32,000 nt of DNA from Sodalis sp. CWE (lineage in GTDB: Bacteria; Pseudomonadota; Gammaproteobacteria; Enterobacterales; Enterobacteriaceae), in assembly GCF_019646055.1 (NCBI RefSeq), contig NZ_JAESFE010000001.1, positions 418,466 through 450,465 of the forward strand. Reading direction: 5' to 3'. The notes under the pieces were generated by a model that had not been told where the DNA came from, did no database searches, and saw nothing but the letters and a program-made list of their open reading frames with translations. Below, one piece after another: positions 4,425 through 28,839 of this stretch. Each line of letters begins with the position of its first letter. Within the stretch, counting starts at the first letter, position 1. The translations under genes were made by a program, and so were the position numbers.

Positions 4425-4524
4425 ACTTAAATTCCTCTTCCCGTTATCTTTGTTCTGACATTTTAGTTTGATACTTAAAGATCAGTAATTTCTAAATATT
4501 TCTTTTTATCTAAAAACGCGCTTA

Positions 4525-4553
4525 ATTATACTTGAAAGATTCTGACATTTAAA
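4525..4553 (-). promoter_or_regulatory. candidate sigma70 promoter for the porin gene
   Basis: The minus strand reads TTTAAA (4553-4548), 17 nt, then TATAAT (4530-4525), about 100 nt upstream of the porin ATG. That UTR length is similar to E. coli ompC. Such hexamers are common by chance in DNA this AT-rich. Confidence 0.25.
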
Positions 4554-6106
4554 AGAATTTATTTTTCACATATTAAAATAACGGGGAATACAAAAACCTG
4601 TTAACTCTACAGTTAGAAATTTATAATTAGCCTGAATGAAATATTTAAAGAACAATTTTTTATTTAAAAGCTAAACTGATACGTGACTAATCCTTTAACA
4701 TATCATTGTTATGTTGTAAAGTAATTACATTGATTCGCTAATTCCTATCAATAACTGATTTAAAGATATTTATGAGTGCGCAAGTTAATCATATATTCTG
4801 GTTCTTTATTTAAAGAAGTTGCCTAATGATGATCAAAATTTATTTTTTAAAGATTATTAAAAATAATTTAAAGCTAATGTGCTAGCATGTTCTAAATTAT
4901 TTAGATAACTTTCTAAGTTAGAAACTACCATTAAAAGAGATGGAAATTTTTTTTAATTAAAGCGCTAAAAAAGCGGTTTTATTGAATAGATTTATTACAA
5001 TCACCCTATTCCATAGTAATTTTCTTGTTTTGAAACTTTGACTCTATTTTTTTTCAGATACTCTTTTCAAGACCTTTCTTTCTAAGAGCTTTAAATTTAC
5101 GAGTTAAAGATTTATCAAGTTTTGTGCATACGCAATGTGCTTTGAAAAAGTTGAAACATGAAAGATATGCCTTTGACAAATCAAATTTCTTCAAGATATT
5201 CGTAAAATATTGTTAATTTAAATTGACATCTAATAAAGGCTAATTTTTTTTCAAAAAATTGATTTGTTAATAACAAAAAATCTTAAAGTTATTTGAATAT
5301 TTCAAGTATAATTTGGGGCTATCTATATATTTTTTATAGCAAAAAAATTTAGGGCTATTAACTATAATTAACACATAAGGAAAAACTTTTTACATATCCT
5401 AACTAAAAAGAAAGAGTTCAGTTGTTACAATTTTTAGATTAACCGTAAAAAAATTATCGCTTTTAACGAAAACTTTCAGAACCTTCAGAAGAAATTTTTA
5501 ATTTTTAATTTTAAACGAATTATCAATGATAATTTTGCCTTGGTGAAGCTATCTACTATATAGTTGAAGCTGAGCATTTTTTTAGTAATTGTTATCTAGT
5601 AATTGATTTTTTGTATACTTTAATTCTTAAGATCAGTTAACTCTCAATATAGTTTGAATGTCAAAAAATGACAGTCAATAATGCTTTTTATAAATTCTTA
5701 TTTTTTCTATTTAATCAGGTTGCATTATTTATATCAGTGACTTACTACTTAATAAAAGTGTGTTAATTTATTTTAACAAATACTAGCAATACTAAAACAA
5801 GACTATTTACTTATATAGAATCTTTAAATTAAAATGGCGGTGTTAAATAAATTCTCCCTAAAAAAGCAGATCTAGTTTCTTTAGAAGACTAGAAGTCTTA
5901 TATTATTTATATTAGAATCAAAATAGCAAGTCAGTTTAGTGTTTAAAAAAAATAACAATTCTTTCTTGTTTTAAGAAGTGTTAGTATCTATCTAGATTAC
6001 AAGCTGTTTTTCTTCTGGAAGGCGCTTAAAATTAAGCTAAATCTAATTAAATATTAGTAATTTTAAAATAATGGTCAATTTTTGAAATATTTGGAGATTT
6101 AAATTT

Positions 6107-6899: not shown

Positions 6900-7910
6900 T
6901 CAGATAATGTTTCTTGCTCGTAATTCTGTTTTTAAATAAGCATAATAAATTGGTGCTACTACCAATCCTCTTAATCCGAAGATTTCTTCAAAAATAAGCA
7001 TTGCCAACAATAACTCCCAAGATTTTGCGTTAATACAATTTCCAACAATTTTTGCATTCAAGAAATATTCTAACTTATGAATTGAAACAAGATATATTAT
7101 CATTATTCCTCCTAAACCTAAAGAAATTGAAAGCGCAGAAATTATAATCATAAAATTTGATATAAGATTGCCTATAATTGGCAAAAGACCACAGATAAAA
7201 GTAGCTATAACTAACGTGTTACTTAATGGTAAATGAATTCCAAACAGTGGGAGGAGCAATAAGATCATAATTGATGTTAACAATGTATTAACCAACGATA
7301 CTTTAATTTGTGCATAAATAATATTACGAAAAGCTTGTGAAAGATAATATAAACGTTCCAGTAACTGATTCGTAAAGTATGTCCCATGACCAGAAGGTTG
7401 ATTCAGTGAGATCACAGTGCCAATGACAAATCCAATAAAAACAGTAATTATTCCATGTAATAAGGAACGGCCCATTTTTCGAATAATTATTAGGTTTGAC
7501 TCAATTAATAAAAAAAGTTGATCTTTTAATTCTTCCGCACTTTCAGGAAAAAAAAAAGGTAAGTGATCAGGAATATGACTTTTTACATCAGAAAAAATGC
7601 GATCTATTTTAGATATAACATCAATACCGAATTTAATATCCGAAGTTAGAAAATGTATCAAACCCATTACACATAATATAGTAACTAACATAACCAATAT
7701 TATAATCATTGTCGCTACTAACAACCGCGCACGAATACCGCTTGCTAAGTTTTCAACCAAGGGAGTTAGAGAAATAATCGCTTCATATACTAAAAATCCA
7801 GCAATAAAACAAGGAAACAGATTTAATGGAATAATTAAGATAATAAAAGAAAACATTAATAAATAAGAAACAGCTTTTAGCCACCTTTTACTTGTTTTCA
7901 TCTCCAGCAT
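6900..7910 (-). CDS. AI-2E family transporter (UPF0118; PerM/YhhT/YdiK/TqsA-like inner-membrane permease)
   Basis: 336-aa strongly hydrophobic ORF with about 8 predicted TM stretches by eye. Its C-terminal pattern is typical of the family: LLPIIGNLIS.., KLEYFLNAKIVGN.I, ..FGLRGLVVAPI. The MLEM N-terminus resembles E. coli PerM, but I cannot assign the paralog. It contains an in-frame T10 run (complement of 7548-7557). Confidence 0.75.
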   Translation of the reverse strand: MLEMKTSKRWLKAVSYLLMFSFIILIIPLNLFPCFIAGFLVYEAIISLTPLVENLASGIRARLLVATMIIILVMLVTILCVMGLIHFLTSDIKFGIDVISKIDRIFSDVKSHIPDHLPFFFPESAEELKDQLFLLIESNLIIIRKMGRSLLHGIITVFIGFVIGTVISLNQPSGHGTYFTNQLLERLYYLSQAFRNIIYAQIKVSLVNTLLTSIMILLLLPLFGIHLPLSNTLVIATFICGLLPIIGNLISNFMIIISALSISLGLGGIMIIYLVSIHKLEYFLNAKIVGNCINAKSWELLLAMLIFEEIFGLRGLVVAPIYYAYLKTELRARNII

Positions 7911-8246
7911 AGAAATTCCTTTATCGAGTAAACAACGGATTGTTATAACAATTGATTTAGAAAATCGAATTTTATTTCGTCATTTTCTTCTATATTAATT
8001 TGAAGATATTCGTCTTAATATAAATCGACCTTAAATAAATCTTTATTTATTGCATGATAATCGAAAAGTTTTTTGGACTATTTTAAATAAAAGTTTTTTA
8101 CATCTTTATTAGTAAGTAGTGTATTTATACAATTGCTGGATTTTGATGCAAGCAGAAAGTTTGCTAGTGATTTTTTCTATTTAGAAAAAAATTTAATAAG
8201 ATCGATACAGAAGTATTTAAATGCTAGATAAATTAATCTTCTATCC

Positions 8247-8299
8247 TTCAACTGAAATTATAAATGATTATATCAGTAGCTTAATCAATTTCAGTTGAA
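8247..8299. repeat. 13-bp perfect inverted repeat with 27-nt loop
   Basis: TTCAACTGAAATT (8247-8259) is the reverse complement of AATTTCAGTTGAA (8287-8299). It lies in the 1.1-kb divergent spacer between the permease and glyQ. Confidence 0.5.
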
Positions 8300-9008
8300 A
8301 AAATTTAGTATTTAAGTAATTAAAAACACTTTTTATATAAAGAAACAATTCGATTGGTTAATCAATTTGCATTACTTTTCTTACGTTAAGAAGATTTATA
8401 TTCTTGTACGAGTAATATACTCATTACTCTAATGAAATTGATTAAATTTTTCATAGTTATTATGAATAATTTTTTACAGTTAGTTATTATTGAAATAATG
8501 CTGGGTTTGATCTTTCTTTCATTTATTTTTAATTTACTTTATTCTAAATAAAAAGGTCGATTTTTCTGAAAAAGTTATTCTAAAATGCTAAATAAATACC
8601 TTATATTCGCATGATTAATCAACTTTAAAATTAATAAAAATGATATAAAGAAGATAATCTCTTCATTAAGCACTTTACTATTTTTTTTGAAAAATGTAAT
8701 AAATTATTAAAAAGATATTTATACTAATTTTTATATTTATTTCATGGGTTTCATGAAAGTAGTATGAAAAGATACTCTTCTCTTGTTAAGAGATGCATGC
8801 TATTTGAATAATTAATTTTTACAAAGTTAAACGTTAAACGTAATTGTTCTTGATTTAGAAAAAATTGATAAATATATTTGCAGTATCAAAATAATCGTTA
8901 CCTTTGTCTTTTAAATTAACTAATGCGATATTTATGCACGTAAATTGCATCTTAACTATAAGATAAGTTAAATTTTTTTATCGTATCTCATGATATACAT
9001 TAAATATA

Positions 9009-12180: not shown

Positions 12181-12798
12181 TTAGGAATTAAAACGTACAG
12201 CCGCTTCGTCCCAATTTACTACATTCCAAAATGACTTAACATAATCTAGACGACGATTCTGATATTTTAGATAATAAGCGTGCTCCCAGATATCTAATCC
12301 GATAATCGGATTACCTGAAGTGCCAGAGATATTCTCACCCATTAATGGATTATCTTGATTCATAGTAGATGTTACGAATAAAGTTTCGTTATTTTTAATA
12401 AGCCAAGTCCAGCCAGATCCGAAATGCATTAAAGCCGTTTTTTCAAAAAATTCCTGAAATTTACTAACGCTTCCAAAACTATTTTCAATAGCGTTTTTTA
12501 ATTTCCCGCATAAAAAAGTGCCTCCTGGTTTTAGGCCCTTCCAGAAAAAACTATGATTGAAATGTCCTCCAACATTATTGCGTAGTTCGTTTCTTTTTTT
12601 AATTGGAACTTTGTCTAATTTCTGAAGCAAATTATCTATTGGTATATTATCAAACTCTGGTAGTTGATCTAAAATAGCATTAGCGTTATTAATATATGTT
12701 AGATGGTGCTTTTTATGATGAATTTCCATTGTTTCTTTATCAAAAGAAGGTTCTAAAGCATCATAGTCATATGATAGGGAAGGTAGTATAAAACTCAT
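12181..12798 (-). CDS. sodA: superoxide dismutase (Mn type)
   Basis: 205-aa ORF collinear with E. coli SodA. N-terminus [20 protein letters not shown] vs MSYTLPSLPYAYDALEPHFD. Also HHKKHH, FGSGW.WL and [15 protein letters not shown]...[13 protein letters not shown]. Confidence 0.95.
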
Positions 12799-15274
12799 AA
12801 ATATCTCTCCGTTTTAGTATGAATCAATTTCTTCATTTTCCTTTTGAAAGAAGAATAAGAAAAACAATAATAAAACTTAATTATTGTTTATTAACAATAA
12901 AAAAAAGAACATGATTCTTATCATTAAACGACTGTTAATCAAGTTTGATTCACATCAACTTATCAGGATTAATTGTACGAATCAATTGTTTCATTTTTTT
13001 TCATTTTTTAAAAACTTAGGTTCCTCGAGAAGAGGGAGTATAGCAGCACTAAAAAATAAAAGCAAGCATAAATATATCCTTTAATTAGGAAATCTCTTAA
13101 TAAGGAATTGTTTATATATGCTATATGGATAATCTAAAAAACGTGTAAGTTTTCTTTATTTAGGAAGGGTTCTTTTTAATTTTTAATTAAAATGAATATA
13201 TTTCATATGTTAATAATTATTATATTTAAAGTTTATTCATAAATAATATAAAATATTATTCTAATATAAATAGACGTGGCTTAAAATTTTCTCAATGCAG
13301 GAGTTTTTATCTTTTCTCTAAAAAAGTCGATAAACTACCAACAATTAATTTCTATTATAAATAGACATATTTAATTTAAATTAAAAGTTACATTATTTAA
13401 CATAAAAAACTTATTTTCTTTGCATATTAAAAATAATATTAATTAATTTAACGACTAAAAGATAAATATTAATAGTTTATACGAAAAGGTGTATTTTGGT
13501 ATGTTTTGATAGTTTTTGAAAAACTTTATAGAGTTCTCAATTAACTTATTAGTTAGCTTTTATTTGAAACTTTTTCACATTGAATATTATCTAAATATTT
13601 TTAGATGTTCTAATTTTTCTTTTTTAAAGACTGTTCAATTGAACAATTGAATGTTTTAATATTATTTTCAAGCTAACTTATTATTTATTTTCTTAAATAT
13701 TAAACTTTTATTTATATATTTTTTTAGCAAAATTAGTTAGTTAACAGTGAATAATTAATATAAGTTTTGATTTTTATATTTCTATGAAATAGAAATTTTT
13801 TCAATAAATCTCATTGAAGTTCAATAAGCTAATTTTTTATCAGAAAATAAAAATAATAGTTGTTATATAATTTTATCATAAAACTTGTTTTGATTTATTA
13901 TCAATGGTTATTTAATTTTTTATTAATTAATTATTATTGAGTCTTCTAATAAGAAGATTAGTTCTAACTATTCAGTCAGAGATATAGCGAAGCTGTTACG
14001 TAAAAAATAAAATTTTAATTGTCAAAAGAATTTGAATAAGCGTTAGAACTTGAATAATTTTTTTAAAACGATTATTAATTATGATTAGCTAGTTCCTCTT
14101 TCTTTATTAAAAAGCCAGTGCAATAATTTTTAGAAATTACATTTTATTATGCAAGTAAATTAGGACTAGTGTTATGGTAAGCAAATAAGCTAATAAAACA
14201 TATTTATCTCAATGAGATAGATCAGAAGTTCAAATTTTCTCTTACCAACTGTTTTTAGTTTTAATATTTAAAATAAATAAATCTTCTAAACTAAGAGCTT
14301 CTATAATTTGATGAAATTTTAAAAAAATTCGAATTATATCATAACATGATCTTACTTAATAATGGTTTTATTCTTTTTTTAAGAAGAAAATTATTAATCA
14401 AATAAATAAAAGGTAATATATTTTAATTTTCTAAAAAATTTTCATTTCTAGATATTTAATCAGGCTATACGTAACCATTTATATGTTTTATATTTAATTT
14501 GACATAATCCATGAAATTAATAATTAAGTTAATTTAATTAAATACTAAATTAAACATTTTTAATAAAAAATTAAAATAACTATTTTCTTTTATTGGTTTT
14601 AATTATTAATTTTAATATTATTAGATTAATTTTAAATAGACTGATTGAAATCCATTTATACTAAAGTATAGTAAAAGCAATGGTTTAAGATCGTCAATAA
14701 TTTAATGTTTATAAAAAATGAGCTGCTTACTAATTTTTAGTTAAATTTAATAGTAAAACCATCTGAATTAACAAAAAAATACCTAGAATGACTATTTATT
14801 CTAAATTTGACTAAAAATCAAAATTAATAGAAATATTGACAAATCATAAACATGACTATTTTGTATGAAAAAACTATCAATGCATTCACTAGGAAGTGAA
14901 TGTTTAACAAAAAAAGTCTATTTATAACAAAATATTATTAATAATAAACTGTTTAATAAATTTTAATGATTTTTCTCTTCTTAAAGAGAAGTCGCTTTGT
15001 AACTAATATTATTTAGAATAAACGAGAGTTAGTATTTAATTAATTAAGCTAAAATTTAAGCATTTCGAATAGTTTTAGAGAATTTATATTTTATAAACTT
15101 TTCAAACTGCTTATTTAAACAAACATTAATATTTTTAATGTAGATTTTTATAAATTTAGGTAAGAGTAACTAATTCTATCTATATAGAAAAGGATTGTTT
15201 ACTAAAACAATTATAGAGAACTGTTTACTAAAAGCGTTTATTTTAAAAATAATTTTTATAGGACCTTTTCATTT

Positions 15275-17728
<2,454 letters not shown>

Positions 17729-18220
17729 TTAAAGGTATCTCCTTTTTTTTATTTTAAATGTTTTGTTTTTTATTGGAAATATTAGAGATTTGATTTAACT
17801 GTCAGTGGCATTTAGAATTTACTAGTCACTAGTAACCTTAGGTATTTTATCAAAAATTGCTAATATCTAAAATATAGTTCAGCATATAAAGTTACTAAAT
17901 AAGTAAAGATTTCACTGGCCATTTCGGCGAAACATAAGATTTTGTCCTTAAATCAAGAAGAAATTTACAAACTAATAATTTCAACTAACGTCTTGAGATA
18001 ATTTACAAATTTTTTAGGGCTTATAGCAAGAGTTTTTAAATTGTTTTTATGCGAACTAAATTCAATATAAATTAGAAACAATTGGATCAAAATAATTTTT
18101 TATTAATTTTCTGAGAAAGCTTTTTTGTCCCAGCCATATTAAAAAACAAAGTTAGTGAAATCAGCAAATTTGACAGATTTAGTTTTATGAAATTGCATAT
18201 TGATAAATGTAATAAAATTA

Positions 18221-18239
18221 CTTTCTCTTTCTGAGAAAG
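18221..18239 (-). terminator. candidate terminator hairpin immediately after dnaN
   Basis: The minus strand reads TGA(stop) TTTTT CTTTCTC AGAAA GAGAAAG TAATTTTATT: 7-bp stem, 5-nt loop, U-rich tail. The stem has only 2 G:C pairs. Confidence 0.3.
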
Positions 18240-18244
18240 AAAAA

Positions 18245-19354
18245 TCAGATTTGCATAGGCATAACAATGTAAATAGCACTTTGATTAGAACTATCTTCAA
18301 TTTGAACTCCAGATGTACAATTCATAAAACTTAGTCGGATTTTTTCACATCTTAACACATTTAATATATCAAGTATGTAATTAACATTAAAGCCAATTTC
18401 TGCTTCATTGCCTTCATAGAAAATATCTAGAATTTCTTCTGCTTCTTCCTGTTTTGTGTTATTAGCAGTAATCTTCAACCTTGTAGAACTAAAATGTAAA
18501 CGTACCCCACGGAATCTCTCATTAGAAAAAATGGCAGCTCGAATAAGAGATTGTCTAAACTTATTACAGTCAATTTCTAATATATTGTTTTTATTTTTTG
18601 GCAGTACACGACGATAATCTGGAAAACATCCATCAATCAATCTAGAAGTGAAAATATAATCCCCAATAATAATTCGCAGATTATTGTTACCAATTTGAAA
18701 TCTTACAATATTTTCATCAATAACATCCAAAATTCGTATTAACTCTATTACTCCTCGCCGTGGCATAATAATAGAATGAAATGGAAGACGATCCGAACTA
18801 ATAGGCATACTGCATATTGCCAGGCGATGTCCATCAGTAGCTATTGTGCTTAATTTTTCATCCTCAATTTCAAATAATAAACCGTTAAGACAATAACGTA
18901 TATCTTGTTGAGCCATAGAAAAATATGTCGATTCAATTAATTGCTTTAATACAGATCGCATTAAACTAAATTCTATTTTTTTTTGCCATTTTTTTAGACA
19001 AGGAAAATCCGATGCAGGTAATGTAGAAAGTAAATAACGGCTTTGTCCTGAATGAATTAATAATTTTTCACCTTCAAGTTTCATTGAAACCTTAGCTTCT
19101 TTGGGCAAACTACGAAAAATATCAAAGAGCTTTCGTGCTGGTACCGTAACAGCACCTAATTCATAGGTGGTATCTATTAACATAACTTGAGTAATAATTT
19201 CTACTTCTAGATTGGTGCTAATTAATAACAAAGTACCTTTAGATACTTGCAATAGTAAATTAGCTAGAATTGGCAAGTGTAAAGAACTTCTTAACGGATT
19301 ATTAAGGTACTGTAATGGTTTGAGCAATCTATCTCGTTCAATAGTAAATTTCAT
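18245..19354 (-). CDS. dnaN: DNA polymerase III beta sliding clamp
   Basis: 369-aa ORF collinear with E. coli DnaN (366 aa). Shared blocks MKFT.ER..LLKPLQ, LPIL.NLLLQV, TVPARK.FDI.R.LP, ATDGHRLA.CSMPI, DG.FPDYRRVLPKN and RGVRL......LKITANN..QEEAEE. C-terminus YIVMPMQI vs YVVMPMRL. Confidence 0.97.
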   Translation of the reverse strand: MKFTIERDRLLKPLQYLNNPLRSSLHLPILANLLLQVSKGTLLLISTNLEVEIITQVMLIDTTYELGAVTVPARKLFDIFRSLPKEAKVSMKLEGEKLLIHSGQSRYLLSTLPASDFPCLKKWQKKIEFSLMRSVLKQLIESTYFSMAQQDIRYCLNGLLFEIEDEKLSTIATDGHRLAICSMPISSDRLPFHSIIMPRRGVIELIRILDVIDENIVRFQIGNNNLRIIIGDYIFTSRLIDGCFPDYRRVLPKNKNNILEIDCNKFRQSLIRAAIFSNERFRGVRLHFSSTRLKITANNTKQEEAEEILDIFYEGNEAEIGFNVNYILDILNVLRCEKIRLSFMNCTSGVQIEDSSNQSAIYIVMPMQI

Positions 19355-20228
19355 TAATGATCATAAAAAAAATATTTTCTACTAAAAAATTTTGTTTTTT
19401 TTGACTCACGCATTGAGTTATTTTCTTTATTTAAGAACGAAATGCAATACTGCTTAGTCATTGTACTTAAATTTCAACTTTTACTAAAAAGTAATTATCC
19501 AAGCAACATTAATATATGGAATAAAATTGAGTTTTACGATAATTTTTTTGCTATAACTCTCAAAATTAGCTTTTATCTAAAGCAGATAGGATGCACATTA
19601 ATGCTAAGTTGCTAGAAATTTTAGTCTACAGTACAGAGTATTCAAATACTTTTTTAGAGTATGTTAATTATGTAATTTAAAATCTAATTTCGTTATTTTT
19701 ACTTGATCCCCCATTTCTAACGGTTAAGTTTAATATATAATGAAAATAAACCACATGAGTGAAAGATTAATTACTTGGATTAAGAACAATATTGCACAAT
19801 ATCAAAATTTAATCTAAAAATATTTAGTCATTGTAATATTATTTGATCTATCTTTGATAGTTCTTTTTGAAAGATTAAATAAAAGTTGAAAATAATATTG
19901 TTAAATAACAAATGTGAAATACTATAAGTAAAAATGAAAATTAAACACATATAACTAACAGTATATTTATCTTCTTAGGAGCAGAGAAACGGTAAACGCA
20001 TTAGAAATATAAAATGTATACAAAATGAGTCTTACTTAAGAGCACTTAAAAACAGAGAAGTTACGCTAAAAATAGATTTAATTTTTTTAAAAATTTAAAT
20101 TTTTGACTGAATATTGCAGGCATAACTCTAATTTTTAGAAAAAACAGTCTAAGATTTAACTCTTTGTGTATATTGTTTATTCAATGAAAGATATTAAGAA
20201 ATATATATCTGTATTGCAAGTAGAGAAT

Positions 20229-20257
20229 TTGACTTAAAGCTTTAATTTGTTTACATT
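20229..20257 (+). promoter_or_regulatory. candidate sigma70 promoter for rpmH-rnpA-yidD-yidC
   Basis: TTGACT (20229-20234), 17 nt, then TACATT (20252-20257), about 100 nt upstream of the rpmH ATG. Motif-only evidence in AT-rich DNA. Confidence 0.25.
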
Positions 20258-20358
20258 TTCTTTATATCCTTGAAACGTTTTATAGTTAGGAGAAGCAGAT
20301 ACTTGAAATTTATAAAAGATTTTCAAAATTAACCAAATAAAAAAAAGTAAACTTCATT

Positions 20359-20502
20359 ATGAAACGCACATTTCAACCATCTGTATTAAAAAGAAATCGT
20401 TCTCATGGCTTTCGTATACGTATGAAAAAAAAAAGCGGACGTCGCATTCTATCGCGTCGACGTGCAAAAGGCAGAATGCGCTTGACTTCATCTTCTAAAT
20501 GA
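20359..20502 (+). CDS. rpmH: 50S ribosomal protein L34
   Basis: Not in the ORF track (47 codons); translated by hand. [47 protein letters not shown], then TGA at 20500-20502. The first 19 residues are identical to E. coli L34 as I recall it. It sits directly upstream of rnpA, as in virtually all bacteria. Confidence 0.95.
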
Positions 20503-20870
20503 GTTTCGTGATGATGAGGCTTATGTTTTCACGAAAATTAAGATTATTAACTTCTGCGCACTTTGCTTTTGTATTTCAAAAACCAAAAAAAGTAAGTGCA
20601 TTAAATATTAGTATTTTCGGTCGACTAAATACCTTGGCATATCCACGGATTGGGATTACAATCGCCAAGAAACATGTAAAACAAGCTCATGAAAGAAATC
20701 GAATAAAACGTCTTGTGCGGGAAAGTTTTCGTTTGTTTCAACATGCTTTACCTGCAATGGATTTTGTAATTACTGTCAAAAAAAATATATCCAATTTGGA
20801 TAACCGTTCCCTAACGGAGACGTTAGGAAAATTATGGCATTTCTATTTTCTTTTCTCTCAAATCCACTGA
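20499..20870 (+). CDS. rnpA: RNase P protein component
   Basis: 123-aa ORF collinear with E. coli RnpA (119 aa). Shared blocks R.LRLLT...[39 protein letters not shown] and L..LW. The ATG at 20499 overlaps the rpmH stop (ATGA). Alignment length would also fit a start at ATG 20511 or 20514. Confidence 0.9.
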
Positions 20871-21079
20871 CTAAATTGATACGTGTGTATCAACTCACAA
20901 TTAGTCCATTATTTGGACCAAATTGTAGGTTTACGCCTACATGTTCGCAGTATGGAATTGAGTCGATAAGCAAATTTGGTATGTTGAAAGGTGGTTGGTT
21001 AACAGTAAAACGCGTATTGAAATGTCACTCTTTACATGAAGGCGGCAAAGATCCCGTACCACCTAAATTTTGGAAATAG
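20834..21079 (+). CDS. yidD: membrane protein insertion efficiency factor YidD
   Basis: 81-aa ORF collinear with E. coli YidD. Shared blocks LIRVYQ..ISPL.GP.CRF.PTCS.YGIE and G.WLTVKR.LKCH.LH.GG.DPVPP. It overlaps the rnpA 3' end by 37 nt. Confidence 0.9.
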
Positions 21080-21093
21080 AGAACATTAATACT

Positions 21094-22725
21094 ATGGATG
21101 TGCAACGTAATCTTTTCGTCATAGCTTTACTATTCGTATCTTTTATAATTTGGCAAACATGGCAAATCGACCATAATTTTAAGCCTGCTACTCAATTTGA
21201 AAATACTACTACCTTAGTAGACTTAGATAGACAAGCACCAATAGCGAGTAAAGAAAAAAAAATTATTTCAATTAAAACTGATGTGCTCTTGCTAAATATT
21301 AATGCTTATGGTGGTGATATTGAAGATGCTTTTTTACTGTCTTATCCAAAGGAACTAAATTCGTTGCAACCCTTCCATTTATTGGAAACTTCTTCTAAGT
21401 TTATTTATCAAGCACAAAGTGGATTTACTGGAAAAAATGGTCCGGATAATCCTGTTAATGGTGTTCGTCCTCTGTTTATCACAGATCAGAGTACATATGT
21501 ACTAAAAAAAGATCAAACAAAACTAGTTGTACCACTAACTTATATGTCTTTAGACGGAGTTAAATATACTAAAACCTTTGTTTTAAAACGCGGCAATTTT
21601 GCACTAGATATCATTTTTTCCATTAAAAATACTAGCGTTAAACCAGTTGAATTAACACTTTTTGGACAACTGAAACAATCCATTAATTTACCTAAGTCGC
21701 ATGACAGTAAACGTCATAATTTTGCATTACATGCTTACCGTGGAGCGGCTTACTCTACTATTAATGAAAAATATCAGAAATATAGCTTTAAAGATATAAA
21801 AAACAAAAATTTAAATATTGATAGTAACGGCGGTTGGATAGCTATGCTACAACAATATTTCGTTGCAGCTTGGATTCCTTCCATTCTGGATAAAAATACT
21901 TTTTACACGTCAGAATTAAACAATAACTTAGCAATAATTGGATTTAAGTCTCCTTCTTTTACTGTTCTGCCAAACAGTCAAAGCGAAATGAAATCTGTAC
22001 TTTGGATCGGTCCTAATATTCAAGATAAATTAGCATCTGTCGCTCCGCATTTAGATTTAACGGTTGATTACGGTTGGTTATGGTTTATTTCTCAACCATT
22101 ATTTAAATTATTAAAGTTTATTTACAGCTATGTTGGTAACTGGGGTTTTTCTATAATCATCATTACATTTATTGTACGTGGGATCATGTATCCTTTAACT
22201 AAAACACAATATATTTCGGTAGCAAGAATGCGTGTACTGCAACCAAAACTGATAGCAATACGTGAACGACTAAGTAATAATAAACAACAACAAAGTCAAG
22301 AAATAATGGCGCTTTACAAGAAAGAAAAAGTTAACCCATTAGGTGGATGTCTTCCTTTTTTAATTCAGATGCCTATATTTTTAGCTCTATATTATATGCT
22401 ATCAAGTTCTGTTGAGTTACGTCATGCACCATTTGCATTATGGATTTATGATTTGTCATCACAAGATCCGTATTACGTTCTTCCAGTTTTAATGGGGGTT
22501 ACTATGCTTTTTATACAAAAAATGTCTCCTTCTACTATTACTGATCCAGTGCAACGAAAATTTATAACCTTTATGCCGGTAATTTTTACTTTATTTTTTT
22601 TATGGTTTCCTTCAGGATTAGTTTTATACTATATAGTCAGCAACTTAGTAACTATCATTCAACAACAACTAATTTTTCGTGGTTTAGAAAAACATGGTCT
22701 ATATAACAAAAAGAAAAAACATTAA
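21094..22725 (+). CDS. yidC: membrane protein insertase YidC
   Basis: The track ORF starts at TTG 21070. ATG 21094 instead gives [21 protein letters not shown], matching the E. coli YidC N-terminus [21 protein letters not shown]. The rest is collinear: [82 protein letters not shown] and [31 protein letters not shown]. Confidence 0.96.
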
Positions 22726-22801: not shown

Positions 22802-24199
22802 ATGCAATGTAAAAAATCTTTCCCATTCAATCAAACAGACACTATTGCTGCTCTTGCCACTCCACCAGGGGTTGGAGGAGTGGGTATTTTACGTGTTTCT
22901 GGATCGTTAACTGTTCAAGTGGCTCATGCATTACTCGGAAGAGTTCCCAGTCCTCGACAGGCCGAATATTTACCATTTCGCAATAAAAAAGGTGAAACGA
23001 TTGATCAGGGAATTGCGATATTCTTTCCACATCCTCACTCCCTTACAGGAGAGGATATCTTGGAATTACATGGGCACGGAGGCCCAGTTGTACTCGATTT
23101 GCTGTTAGAGCATATTGTTGGAGTACATGGAGTACGTATTGCGCGCCCTGGTGAATTTTTAGAACGCGCTTTCCTTAATGACAAGCTAGATTTAGTTCAA
23201 GCTGAAGCTGTCGCTGATCTTATCAATGCCAGTTCAGTTCAAGCTGCACGTTTAGCAGTAAATTCATTACAAGGTATATTTTCCAATCATATTCAAGAAA
23301 TAGTCAAATCAATTACTAAATTGCGCATTCATATTGAAGTGGATATTGATTTTCCTAACGAAGAAAAAACTGACTATTCTTTATCTAAAGATAAAATTAA
23401 CACGGATCTAAATAAAATTATTTTTCAACTTAATCAAACGTATGACAAAGCGAATCAAGGCAATTTACTGCGCGAAGGAATAAAAGTAGTAATAGCCGGA
23501 AAACCAAATGTCGGTAAGTCCAGTTTACTAAATATCCTGGTTGGACGTGAAGCAGCAATTGTCACTAGTATTGCTGGTACGACGCGCGACGTTATAAGAG
23601 AAAATATCCATATTAACGGAATACCATTAAATATTGTTGATACTGCTGGGCTTCGAAAGACTAGTGATGAAATAGAACGCATTGGCATTGAGCGAGCTAA
23701 AGCCGAAATTGAACAAGCAGATCATATACTTTTTGTTGTAGACAAAACCGTTACATCTCTTAATGATTTAAACAAACTCAGTTCTGAACTTATTAATTTT
23801 TCTCAACCCATGTCAGTACCAGTCACCATTATACAAAATAAAGCAGATCTTACTGGAGAAAATGTTAGATGTAGGAAAATAGGTAATCATCCCTGCATTA
23901 TTTTATCAGCACGATCTGGTGCAGGAGTAAATCTATTGCTTTCTCATTTGAGAATGAGCGTTGGTTTTAAGAAAAATATAGAGGGAATTTTTCTAACCAG
24001 ACGTCGTCATTTGCATGCATTGAAAGCAGCCATTTTCCATTTACAAAATGGAAGGAAACAGTTATCGACTAATCACTTTCATGAATTATTAGCTGAAAAT
24101 CTTCGTTTAGCGCAACAATCTTTAAATGAGATTACTGGTGAATTTAAAACTAATGATTTACTTGACGAAATTTTTTCCAAATTTTGTATTGGAAAATAA
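22802..24199 (+). CDS. mnmE: tRNA modification GTPase MnmE (TrmE/ThdF)
   Basis: 465-aa ORF collinear with E. coli MnmE (454 aa). Shared blocks [72 protein letters not shown]-domain G.PN.GKSSLLN and DTAGLR, and C-terminal FCIGK. Confidence 0.96.
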
Positions 24200-24300
24200 T
24201 GCTTATCTTTAATTAAGATATATAAAATAGTCATTAAGAGGTTAATTCCATTAAGAAAAGTCGCTCTTATTTTAAATACTATCAAGATAAAACTTTTCTG

Positions 24301-24325
24301 AAATAAAAAAGCAGCTAATTAGCTC
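24301..24325 (-). terminator. weak candidate terminator after bamC
   Basis: The minus strand reads TGA(stop) TTATG AGCTAATTAGCT GC TTTTTTATTT: a 12-nt perfect palindrome (24313-24324) followed by a T-rich run. The usable stem is only 4-5 bp. Confidence 0.25.
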
Positions 24326-24329
24326 ATAA

Positions 24330-24644
24330 TCATTCGCAATAACAATCTAGGTGAAAATTGTCTAAAGGTTCTAGTGATTTTGGAGGTCTAATATCTAGTT
24401 TTTTGCCTATTTTACCATTATATAGAACAGTAGGAATTTCGTAATCATTGTTATATTCCGGTAAGAAAATTGAATTAGGTAAATAAATAAGTGCCCGCAA
24501 AGAAGGTGTTTGTAAATATCTTTCGTGATCATTCGCTTGGGTATTACAATCATAATGATACAAAGAGCATGACTCAGTTAACATAGTCACGCTTGCTAAA
24601 GCAAGCGCTAGCTTTGATATCCGAAAAATGAATATTTTAAACAT
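24330..24644 (-). CDS. bamC: truncated outer-membrane assembly lipoprotein BamC (NlpB), N-terminal BamD-binding segment only
   Basis: 104-aa ORF 21 nt downstream of dapA, the position bamC/nlpB occupies in E. coli. It has a signal peptide plus Cys (..VTMLTESC). YLQTPSLRALIYLPNSIFLPEYNNDYEIPTVLYNGKIGKKLDIRPP aligns with E. coli BamC [45 protein letters not shown]. E. coli BamC is 344 aa; this ORF stops 14 codons after DIRPP. Confidence 0.7.
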   Translation of the reverse strand: MFKIFIFRISKLALALASVTMLTESCSLYHYDCNTQANDHERYLQTPSLRALIYLPNSIFLPEYNNDYEIPTVLYNGKIGKKLDIRPPKSLEPLDNFHLDCYCE

Positions 24645-24665
24645 AACATAAGTTCTCTAGAGAGT

Positions 24666-25586
24666 TTAAATTAAACCTGCGTGTAATAATGCTTTCTTTA
24701 GTATAAGACGCCCAGATTTCTTTAGTGAAGTCATTGGCAGGCGTAGTGTATCCTTTTCAATTAATCCTACTACTTTGCAAGCCCACTTAATAGGTATCGG
24801 ATTAGTTTCATAAAAAAGATTGCGATGTAAAGGTATCAACTTTTTATTAAGACATCGTGCTTCGGCTAAACTACCTCTAGCAACTAAAGTGCAAATTTTT
24901 GCTATTTCCTTTGCTGCGACATTTGCAGTTACGGAAATTACTCCTTTGCCACCTAATTGCATAAAATCTAATGCGCTTTCATCATCACCGCTCAAAAGTA
25001 TAAAATTATCACTAACTAACTCTTGAATTTGATTAACGCGCTTCAGGTCTCCTGTTGCATCCTTAATACCAACAATATTTTTAATATTTGCTAAACGAGC
25101 AACGGTAGATGGCAAAATATCGCAACCGGTTCGTATTGGAACATTATATAAAATTTGCGGTAGGTCACTGTTTTCAGCAATAGCCTTAAAATGATAAAAA
25201 AGTCCTTTTTGATTTGGACAATTGAAATAAGGAGTAACAATAAGATATCCCATTACACCACTATCATTAAATCTCTTAGCTATTAAAATTGCTTCGTTGG
25301 TAGAGTTTGTACTTATTCCGCTAATGATAGGAATACGCCCTTCACTAATTTCAATGGACCAAGTTACTAGTTTATAATATTCCTCATGAGTGAGAGTAGA
25401 TATTTCTCCAGTTGTTCCTGCTATCACAATTGCTGTGGTACCACTTTCAATATGGTAATTAATCAGTTTGTTCAAACTGATCTGATCAATAGCACCATAC
25501 TCATTCATCGGAGTAATCAAAGCAACTAAACTACCCTTAAGGTAAGTTATCATTGATTTTTTATTATCAATTAAAGAATACGACAT
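24666..25586 (-). CDS. dapA: 4-hydroxy-tetrahydrodipicolinate synthase
   Basis: 306-aa ORF collinear with E. coli DapA (292 aa). Shared blocks TPM.E.G, GTTGE..TL.H.E, RIP.I.G.. and [70 protein letters not shown]. By alignment the true start is probably the internal ATG at 25553 ([16 protein letters not shown]); neither ATG has a clear SD. Confidence 0.94.
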
Positions 25587-26053
25587 TGGCTGCTTTTAAA
25601 AATAAAAAATTCATTGAAATCATCCGTCAATATAGTTTCACTGAAATAATCAAAACTTATTGTTTAATTTCGCTTCGAAATCTTAATTGAAAAAGAGAAA
25701 TCTTTACTCTGTTGATTTAGTGAAAGGTTACTTATTTGTTACCAGAATATATATAGATCTTTTTAAGAAAATTTAGTTGTTAATTTTACTGTACATTTAC
25801 AGTTTTTTCTCTCTCTGATGAAAAATTATTTCATCTTTCGTTCCAGTAAAAATTTATTTATAGTGCAAAGACTACGCTAAAAATGTTTTCTAAACATACG
25901 TTCGCATTTATTTTTTATCCATGGTATCATATAATCTTTATCCCATAAATAAATAAAGTAATCTGTCAATTTGCTCTTACATATTAAGAAAGCAGTTAAA
26001 AAAAGAAACAAAATTTTGATGGTTTTTCTTAAATCAAATAAATCAAAAGTTAA

Positions 26054-26073
26054 CTCTCTCTTAAAAGAGAGAG
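26054..26073. repeat. 20-nt near-perfect palindrome CTCTCTCTT-AA-AAGAGAGAG
   Basis: 9-bp arms with 4 G:C pairs, read directly. It is immediately followed by the palindrome AGCTAGCT. It lies mid-spacer between dapA and upp. Confidence 0.55.
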
Positions 26074-26791
26074 CTAGCTTTGTATGGTTGCATCTTCTTC
26101 ATTGCGATTTAATTAAAAAGTAAGTTTTAGAAAAAATTTCTCGAAAACAAAATTAAAAGTTTTATTAGTTTCTAATTTATATCTAATAAAATTAGATTGA
26201 TACGTGCATAATTTACATGTTAATACGAATCCGCGCCACGACAACTGAAATACAATAATATTTTGTATTTTCTCTTTTCTAGAAGAGAATTAATTCCAAT
26301 TATTTTACTAACAATTGCTAGATAATTTTTTCTATTATAAAATAGAATTTTTATGCAGAATTTAGTTGACCCGATTTTGCTACCTAAAAAATTTAGTGTA
26401 TAAATTATAATTTAGCTGATAATATAATTTTGCTTTAAACTATCTATTTTAGACTTTACGTGAAATAACATTTTTAGTTATTTTGAATATTTTTCACTAC
26501 GTTCTTTCTTTACGAGAAATCAGAAAAAATTTTAAAGTAAGCCTGTACAACCTATTATTTGAATAAACAATTCCAGTTATAAAAGATATTTTCTTTTAGT
26601 CAAAAGAATAAATATAATAGGAGCTAATAGTTTTTTTTAATTAAAAAAGCACTGAAATTATTTCAAAGCGTTTCTTTTTAAAAGAAAAATATAACAAATT
26701 TAGACAATTAAAAAATTTACATTGATGTTTAAAAAATATTAAAATAATAAACTTGTTTCAAACAATATTGAAAGCAATCTACTAGCGTAAC

Positions 26792-26834
26792 TTTGCTCTT
26801 TTACATATAAAATTTTATGTTGCAAAAGAGCAAA
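26792..26834. repeat. extended interrupted hairpin (11 bp + 5 bp)
   Basis: TTTGCTCTTTT (26792-26802) pairs with AAAAGAGCAAA (26824-26834), including 4 G:C pairs. The inner stem is ACATA (26803-26807) / TATGT (26816-26820), with a 3-nt bulge TGC. It lies about 200 nt downstream of the upp stop, and no U-run follows on either strand. Confidence 0.5.
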
Positions 26835-27036
26835 AGTAAAAAGTTAATAACAATTAATAACGCTTTATTTTAGAAAAATTTTGTTAATGATACGTTGGCT
26901 CTATTAAAAACTAATAAAATTATTTCTTAATAATAAGAAAATAAAAAAATAAAAGACATTTATTAATAAATTTTTTGAATATTTTAATGGAAAAACAATT
27001 AATGATTTGTCTTAGTAAAGATTTAAAAATTAGAAT

Positions 27037-27663: not shown

Positions 27664-28839
27664 ATATCTCTCCATAGAGCAACGAAAGATTCAATTTTTA
27701 AGAAATTATAACGTGTTTGTATATGATTAGATATTATGAATTAATTCTTAGTTTTACTTAAATCAATTTACGTGACATACAATATATCTCATTGTAAAGT
27801 GATTTTTTTAAAAATCTTCGATTGCAAGATATAATTTTTAAGTTTGGAATATTTTTATATCATTAAATAACTGAAAATTCTTTTTCATGTTAAAACTTTC
27901 AAATCTAATAGTTGCAAAGTTATATTTGAATCATCAGGTTCTTCTTAAAGAAGACCCATTTAAATAAAAATATTGGAATTTTCATTCATAAAATGAAATA
28001 ATGTTTTATATCTATTAAGCTTCAGTAAAAAGATATTATTTATTTTATTTACTTGTTCAAATATGGCATGCCTTTATAGAAGGTAAACATATTAAACTAT
28101 ATAAGCAATCAGGACTTTAAATATAAAAAAGTATATTAATATTCATTTTTTAAATGATTGTTAAATTTAATTAACCAAAAATTAAGAAAAAGATATTTAA
28201 GCAAATTTTGCTTTAGCAAGCATTACCAAAATTATTTATATAGCAATTGAAATTAAAAAATTTAACTAAAATTTTTTTTCTAGAAACTCAAATTTTTTAG
28301 TAAAATTTTCTTATAAAGAATTATAATTTATCTGAGTTAAAATTCATATGTATAATTTTAATTAATCTCTTAAAACATTATTAACTTGAATAAGCTGAAG
28401 TAATATTTATTAATAATATTAAATTTGCTCGTTAATTGATGCATGTTTGATTTTGATATTTATTCAAGTCGATAAATAATTACTTGCAAATTAAGTAAAT
28501 CTTTTTAGGTCTAAAAAAATTTTTAGTATAATAAAATATATCGTTATTGTGAATTTATACTTTATATAAGCGTATTTAATTGTAAATGTACTTTACAAAA
28601 CAAATTGTTGCCGTAATTAACAAAGTTAACTATAAAATTCATCAAATTTCTTTTTTACTTTTAATAAAAATAAAGACAGAGGTAAAATTATCTTCTTCTT
28701 AAAAGAAATTTTAAGAAAAAGTTTGAGTTAGCTATATAACAAGTAAACACAAATAATTAATAGAAAAATCGAAAAATAAACTAATTATATTTATCTAATC
28801 GTCAAATTAGATTTTTAAGTCATTTTATAAGAAAAATGT

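Follow-up and report, generated by a model that had tools for sequence, protein, structure and literature searches.

Loss of the replication initiator gene dnaA from its ancestral position beside dnaN in the feather louse endosymbiont Sodalis sp. CWE

The DNA analysed here is a 32-kb window from the genome of Sodalis sp. CWE, an obligate endosymbiont that lives in the feather louse Columbicola wolffhuegeli. On the minus strand the locus of interest contains gyrB (15275..17695), an intact gene for an 806-aa product, which has an orthologous position in the Sodalis glossinidius locus and is the final gene of the ancestral cluster dnaA-dnaN-recF-gyrB. This is followed, at increasing coordinates on the same strand, by a recF pseudogene remnant (17744..18234), found by frameshift-tolerant alignment and corresponding to RecF residues 192-355, and by dnaN (18245..19354), which is intact and encodes a beta sliding clamp of 369 aa with the canonical N-terminus MKFTIERD and three beta-clamp Pfam domains (~E 1e-37). 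On the plus strand lies rpmH (20359..20502), an intact gene for ribosomal protein L34 with a canonical N-terminus and a TIGR01030 match at E 1.6e-21, and downstream of it rnpA (20499-20870), yidD (20834-21079), yidC (21070-22725) and mnmE (22802-24199), all plus-strand, intact, identified by NCBIfam equivalog matches and arranged in the ancestral order seen in S. glossinidius. Between dnaN and rpmH there is an AT-rich spacer of 1,004 bp without genes (19355..20358), at the site where the rpmH-dnaA intergenic region and dnaA itself are expected. The gene boundaries and gap length given by a first-pass annotation of this DNA were exact, and the two genes bordering the gap are intact and divergent.

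Two further observations concern these genes. The yidC ORF as listed begins at a TTG inside the yidD overlap (21070-21096) and the YidC model aligns only from residue 9, so that the true start is probably the ATG at ~21094 (compare MDSQRNLLVIALLF in Sodalis). Among the matches listed, the DnaN of the window shares 100% identity with the one recorded for Sodalis sp. CWE, and every DnaN protein from outside CWE is at most 61% identical, which places CWE on a long, isolated branch.

The ancestral state of the locus can be read from S. glossinidius, where mnmE-yidC-yidD-rnpA-rpmH is divergent from dnaA-dnaN-recF-gyrB. There dnaA encodes a product of 464 aa, and the rpmH-dnaA intergenic region of 624 bp contains one perfect DnaA box (TTATCCACA) and one 8/9 box. 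CWE shares the genes that flank this site, in the same order and orientation, but dnaA and the promoter region with the DnaA boxes are gone and recF has been cut to a remnant of 491 bp. The distances between the retained genes have contracted, from 2,033 bp in S. glossinidius to 1,004 bp in CWE between rpmH and dnaN, and from 1,139 bp to 549 bp between dnaN and gyrB.

The GC content of the spacer is 22.5%, compared with 16-27% for the other spacers of the window and 33.6% for coding DNA. The window as a whole (28.9% GC, 62% coding) fits an obligate, heritable insect symbiont whose genome is reduced and rich in AT. As the first-pass annotation had reported, the spacer has no ORF of 60 or more codons and the minus-strand frame translated there is broken by stops; all ORFs touching it are at most 57 aa and of low complexity, and each of the six frames contains 25-35 stops. 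The lack of an ORF is what chance predicts for non-coding DNA at 22.5% GC, and it is the position of the spacer that is informative. The earlier statement that the spacer has no full DnaA box also held, as TTATCCACA was not found in it even at ≤1 mismatch, and the relaxed box TTWTNCACA does not occur in 19355-20358 either. Across the window, eight 8/9 boxes were found against 9.6 expected, scattered and at chance level. In enterobacteria oriC adjoins mnmG, and both mnmG and oriC lie outside the 32-kb window, so that the lack of DnaA boxes in the spacer says nothing about the origin.

Similarity searches returned no trace of dnaA. tblastn with Shewanella and Sodalis DnaA queries at relaxed settings gave no match in the spacer, and over the whole window the best DnaA match had an E value of 0.4 or worse, with all matches falling in unrelated genes. 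At the DNA level, comparing the spacer by blastn with the rpmH-dnaA region of Sodalis produced short, non-collinear chance matches only. No ORF of about 450 aa with the AAA+ and C-terminal DNA-binding domains of an intact DnaA is present, and a Pfam search of the six spacer frames returned no match, Bac_DnaA and Bac_DnaA_C included. The Pfam search is a weak test, since our own DnaA and RecF profiles, run per frame with hmmsearch --max, missed even the recF remnant, which indicates that per-frame power is low. The decisive test was a purpose-written local protein-to-DNA alignment tolerant of frameshifts and stops, with dinucleotide shuffles as the null. On the minus strand of the spacer Sodalis DnaA scored 30, compared with a null of 33.5 ± 3.2, and z ranged from -1.2 to +1.5 over four penalty sets. 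None of 11 window spacers gave a DnaA signal on either strand.

The same alignment gave a very different result for recF. Sodalis RecF scored 92 against the dnaN-gyrB spacer (17696-18244), compared with 29.6 ± 3.9 for the shuffles (z 9-17), and the traceback over 18234..17744 on the minus strand comprised 51 identities in 160 positions (32%), 7 frameshifts and 6 stops. Weak collinear tblastn matches agree with this remnant. Judging from the alignment, recF is a decayed pseudogene at its syntenic position, of which the dnaN-proximal, N-terminal half is deleted and the C-terminal part alone survives. Its recovery indicates that the alignment method detects heavily decayed genes in the CWE genome, and with the recF yield of about 0.58 score units per residue as a guide, ~75 or more residues of an equally decayed dnaA would be detectable. 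As the recF region has shrunk by a similar proportion and is still recognisable, dnaA appears to have been mostly deleted, or else inactivated much earlier than recF.

The central claim of the first-pass annotation, that the canonical rpmH / dnaA-dnaN site no longer carries dnaA, is therefore borne out by a spacer with no ORF longer than 57 aa and no DnaA similarity in either tblastn or frameshift-tolerant alignment. That annotation had also considered an intact frame that might be recovered by correcting one or two frameshifts; at the z values given above no DnaA homology remains, and because the recF remnant was recovered where no dnaA remnant was, dnaA is evidently beyond repair by a few frameshifts. 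Read from the sequence, dnaA is deleted or eroded past recognition at the dnaN locus, and its loss from this position is certain. Overall, the account that best explains these observations, and which we regard as highly likely, is that dnaA was lost from the rpmH / dnaA-dnaN-recF-gyrB cluster in the course of genome reduction.

Whether this loss extends to the whole genome is a separate matter. The CWE assembly (GCF_019646055.1; coding density 68%, PMC12175528) consists of contigs of 594,011 and 203,407 bp, totals 797,418 bp at 30% GC and is ~95% complete (PMC8173840). The window covers 32 kb of these 797 kb, and neither its genes nor its spacers gave a DnaA signal. An intact dnaA may therefore reside elsewhere, whether on the 203-kb contig, at another place on the 594-kb one or in a gap of the assembly. 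Only the linkage to dnaN would then have been lost, and replication would still depend on DnaA. This possibility gains some credit from the two-contig, incomplete state of the assembly and the limited span of the search, from the rearrangement of the CWE genome relative to Sodalis, which means that genes have moved in this lineage, and from the genome paper, which says nothing of a missing dnaA (PMC8173840). A later comparison of louse symbionts likewise leaves dnaA unmentioned, and a study of Columbicola Sodalis symbionts refers to DnaA loss in general terms only (PMC11137140). Against relocation, rpmH and dnaN have kept both their adjacency and the divergent arrangement of the ancestor, dnaA alone having disappeared from between them, and a move would have required breaks precisely at both ends of dnaA and a rejoining of its flanks. 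The ancestral intergenic region has lost its autoregulatory DnaA boxes as well, and the known enterobacterial symbionts without dnaA beside dnaN lack the gene entirely (PMC4389277, PMC1472245, PMC3280448). We consider relocation unlikely on these grounds. The precise excision between two still-adjacent, correctly oriented neighbours makes genome-wide loss far likelier than relocation, and from the position at the dnaN locus we infer that dnaA has probably been lost from the whole CWE genome.

A second alternative is that the spacer has a role beyond supplying promoters, for instance by encoding a small RNA or a small protein, or by serving as an origin or initiation zone that does not need DnaA. 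Its AT-richness and a local trough in cumulative GC skew at ~19.0-19.3 kb would suit such a role, and in the most speculative version the AT-rich spacer itself would have turned into a DnaA-independent initiation zone. However, the trough sits where gene orientation switches, and the curve then declines again with no sustained turn. Skew in the window tracks the coding strand, most genes having more G than C on their sense strand, and no replication-related switch occurs across the 32 kb, over which cumulative skew runs from ~0 to -327. Rfam gave no match on the spacer at E up to 1, a survey of repeats, self-similarity and structured elements returned only short AT-rich chance matches, the base composition is that of the other window spacers, and the ORFs present (≤57 aa) are of low complexity. 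A dedicated function for the spacer is accordingly very improbable. The idea that frameshifts or sequencing errors in the spacer disguise a dnaA that a few corrections would restore has the spacer's position and nothing else in its favour and can be given practically no weight, as 1,004 bp are present where about 2,030 bp would be needed, stops crowd every frame, and no DnaA likeness emerges under free frameshifts that sufficed to find a recF with 7 frameshifts and 6 stops.

If dnaA was lost through reduction, the course of events may be outlined as follows. Genome reduction in the CWE lineage would have removed dnaA from the cluster rpmH / dnaA-dnaN-recF-gyrB and left a spacer that is probably a non-functional residue, made up of remains of the ~620-bp intergenic region and at most a few hundred unrecognisable bases of dnaA. 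recF would be decaying in the same way while still recognisable, and dnaN, gyrB and the rpmH-rnpA-yidD-yidC-mnmE group would have been kept intact. In E. coli the dnaN promoters are located inside dnaA, and in CWE dnaN would now be transcribed from a promoter within the spacer. The promoter scan identified two sigma-70-like hexamer pairs facing dnaN on the minus strand (19645..19618 and 19563..19536) as candidate dnaN promoters, and a plus-strand sigma-70-like site, TTGACT-17-TACATT (20229..20257), ~100 bp upstream of rpmH as a candidate rpmH promoter, itself not above chance. These sites are to be taken as leads rather than evidence, as the region holds five promoter-like sites against a shuffle expectation of 8.8 and the scan for promoters and terminators found nothing above chance in it. 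Chromosome replication would then start without DnaA, as has been proposed for other DnaA-less insect symbionts, and candidate routes of initiation are priming by recombination or by an R-loop, or a start that depends on recBCD, priA or host factors.

Precedents for such a loss are well documented. The loss of dnaA was first reported in Wigglesworthia, where the gene is absent from both sequenced strains (PMC3280448), and in Blochmannia four symbionts of Camponotus lack it, B. obliquus has it as a pseudogene and B. turneri keeps it intact (PMC4389277). The first-pass annotation had described loss of the initiator as known from only a few symbionts; the Wigglesworthia and Blochmannia precedents that it named are sound, but its rarity was somewhat overrated, given that dnaA has also been lost in Baumannia, Blattabacterium, Carsonella, Sulcia and others, including a termite-protist symbiont (PMC4389277; PMC1472245). 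With regard to what replaces DnaA, routes through priA or recA were judged insufficient because no species without DnaA has both of these genes, and recBCD was proposed instead (PMC1472245). The idea that host control requires loss of dnaA was weakened by B. turneri (PMC4389277).

The closest parallels to CWE are Wigglesworthia glossinidia, the Camponotus Blochmannia and Baumannia cicadellinicola, all of them obligate, AT-rich and reduced gammaproteobacterial symbionts with genomes of 0.7-0.8 Mb. In these three the initiator gene is gone and dnaN, gyrB and other replication genes are kept, and the CWE locus is alike in this respect. CWE differs from them in belonging to the Sodalis clade and in its feather louse host, and thus represents an independent lineage. 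Its coding density is also much lower (62% of the window; 68% reported) with pseudogene debris still visible. In addition, genome-wide absence in Wigglesworthia, Blochmannia and Baumannia was shown from complete genomes, whereas in CWE it is inferred from the dnaN locus. The parallel decay of recF-type repair genes in louse Sodalis symbionts (PMC11137140) is matched in CWE by the recF remnant. B. obliquus resembles CWE as a reduced symbiont in which dnaA was inactivated at its ancestral position, but its pseudogene is an intermediate stage that BLASTX still detects (PMC4389277), and in CWE no similarity is left. This difference suggests that the loss in CWE is either complete or much older.

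CWE is likely to be an independent and so far unreported case of complete dnaA loss within the Sodalis clade. Nearly all bacteria have and require DnaA, and each independent loss is a natural experiment in replication without the initiator and in possible host control of symbiont replication. At the same time, the loss has already been documented in several obligate insect symbionts and is unsurprising for an obligate symbiont of 0.8 Mb. If true, it would add a Sodalis-clade louse symbiont to the DnaA-less set. The Sodalis clade includes close relatives that live freely as well as dozens of sister symbionts in varied stages of decay, and its free-living members, like those acquired recently, have been well characterised. 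The order of losses around initiation (dnaA, recF, priA, recA, hda, seqA, dam) could then be reconstructed, and comparison with other Columbicola Sodalis symbionts could reveal which genes change once DnaA-dependent initiation is abandoned.

Several minor observations were made elsewhere in the window. On one side of the locus (12181-15274), gyrB is preceded by sodA and glyQS and not by the yidA/dgo region as in S. glossinidius, and on the other side (24200-25586) mnmE is followed by bamC-dapA-upp-guaA-der, a synteny break relative to S. glossinidius; by gene order, the CWE genome is rearranged as well as reduced. Upstream of dapA, a 104-aa ORF on the minus strand (24330-24644) matches the first ~86 of 345 positions of the BamC model NF008674, with 57 bits against a cutoff of 371, and positions 2-55 of 323 of Pfam Lipoprotein_18, and bamC appears from these partial matches to be truncated or pseudogenised. 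Large gene-free spacers of 1.1-2.5 kb and 19-24% GC occur at 12799-15274, 4425-6106, 25587-27036, 27676-28839 and 7911-9008 and are presumably the remains of lost genes; screening them for dnaA remnants gave none. Finally, a 336-aa ORF on the minus strand (6900-7910) has no NCBIfam match and a weak full-length match to Pfam AI-2E_transport (49.6 bits), and resembles a membrane transporter that has diverged strongly.
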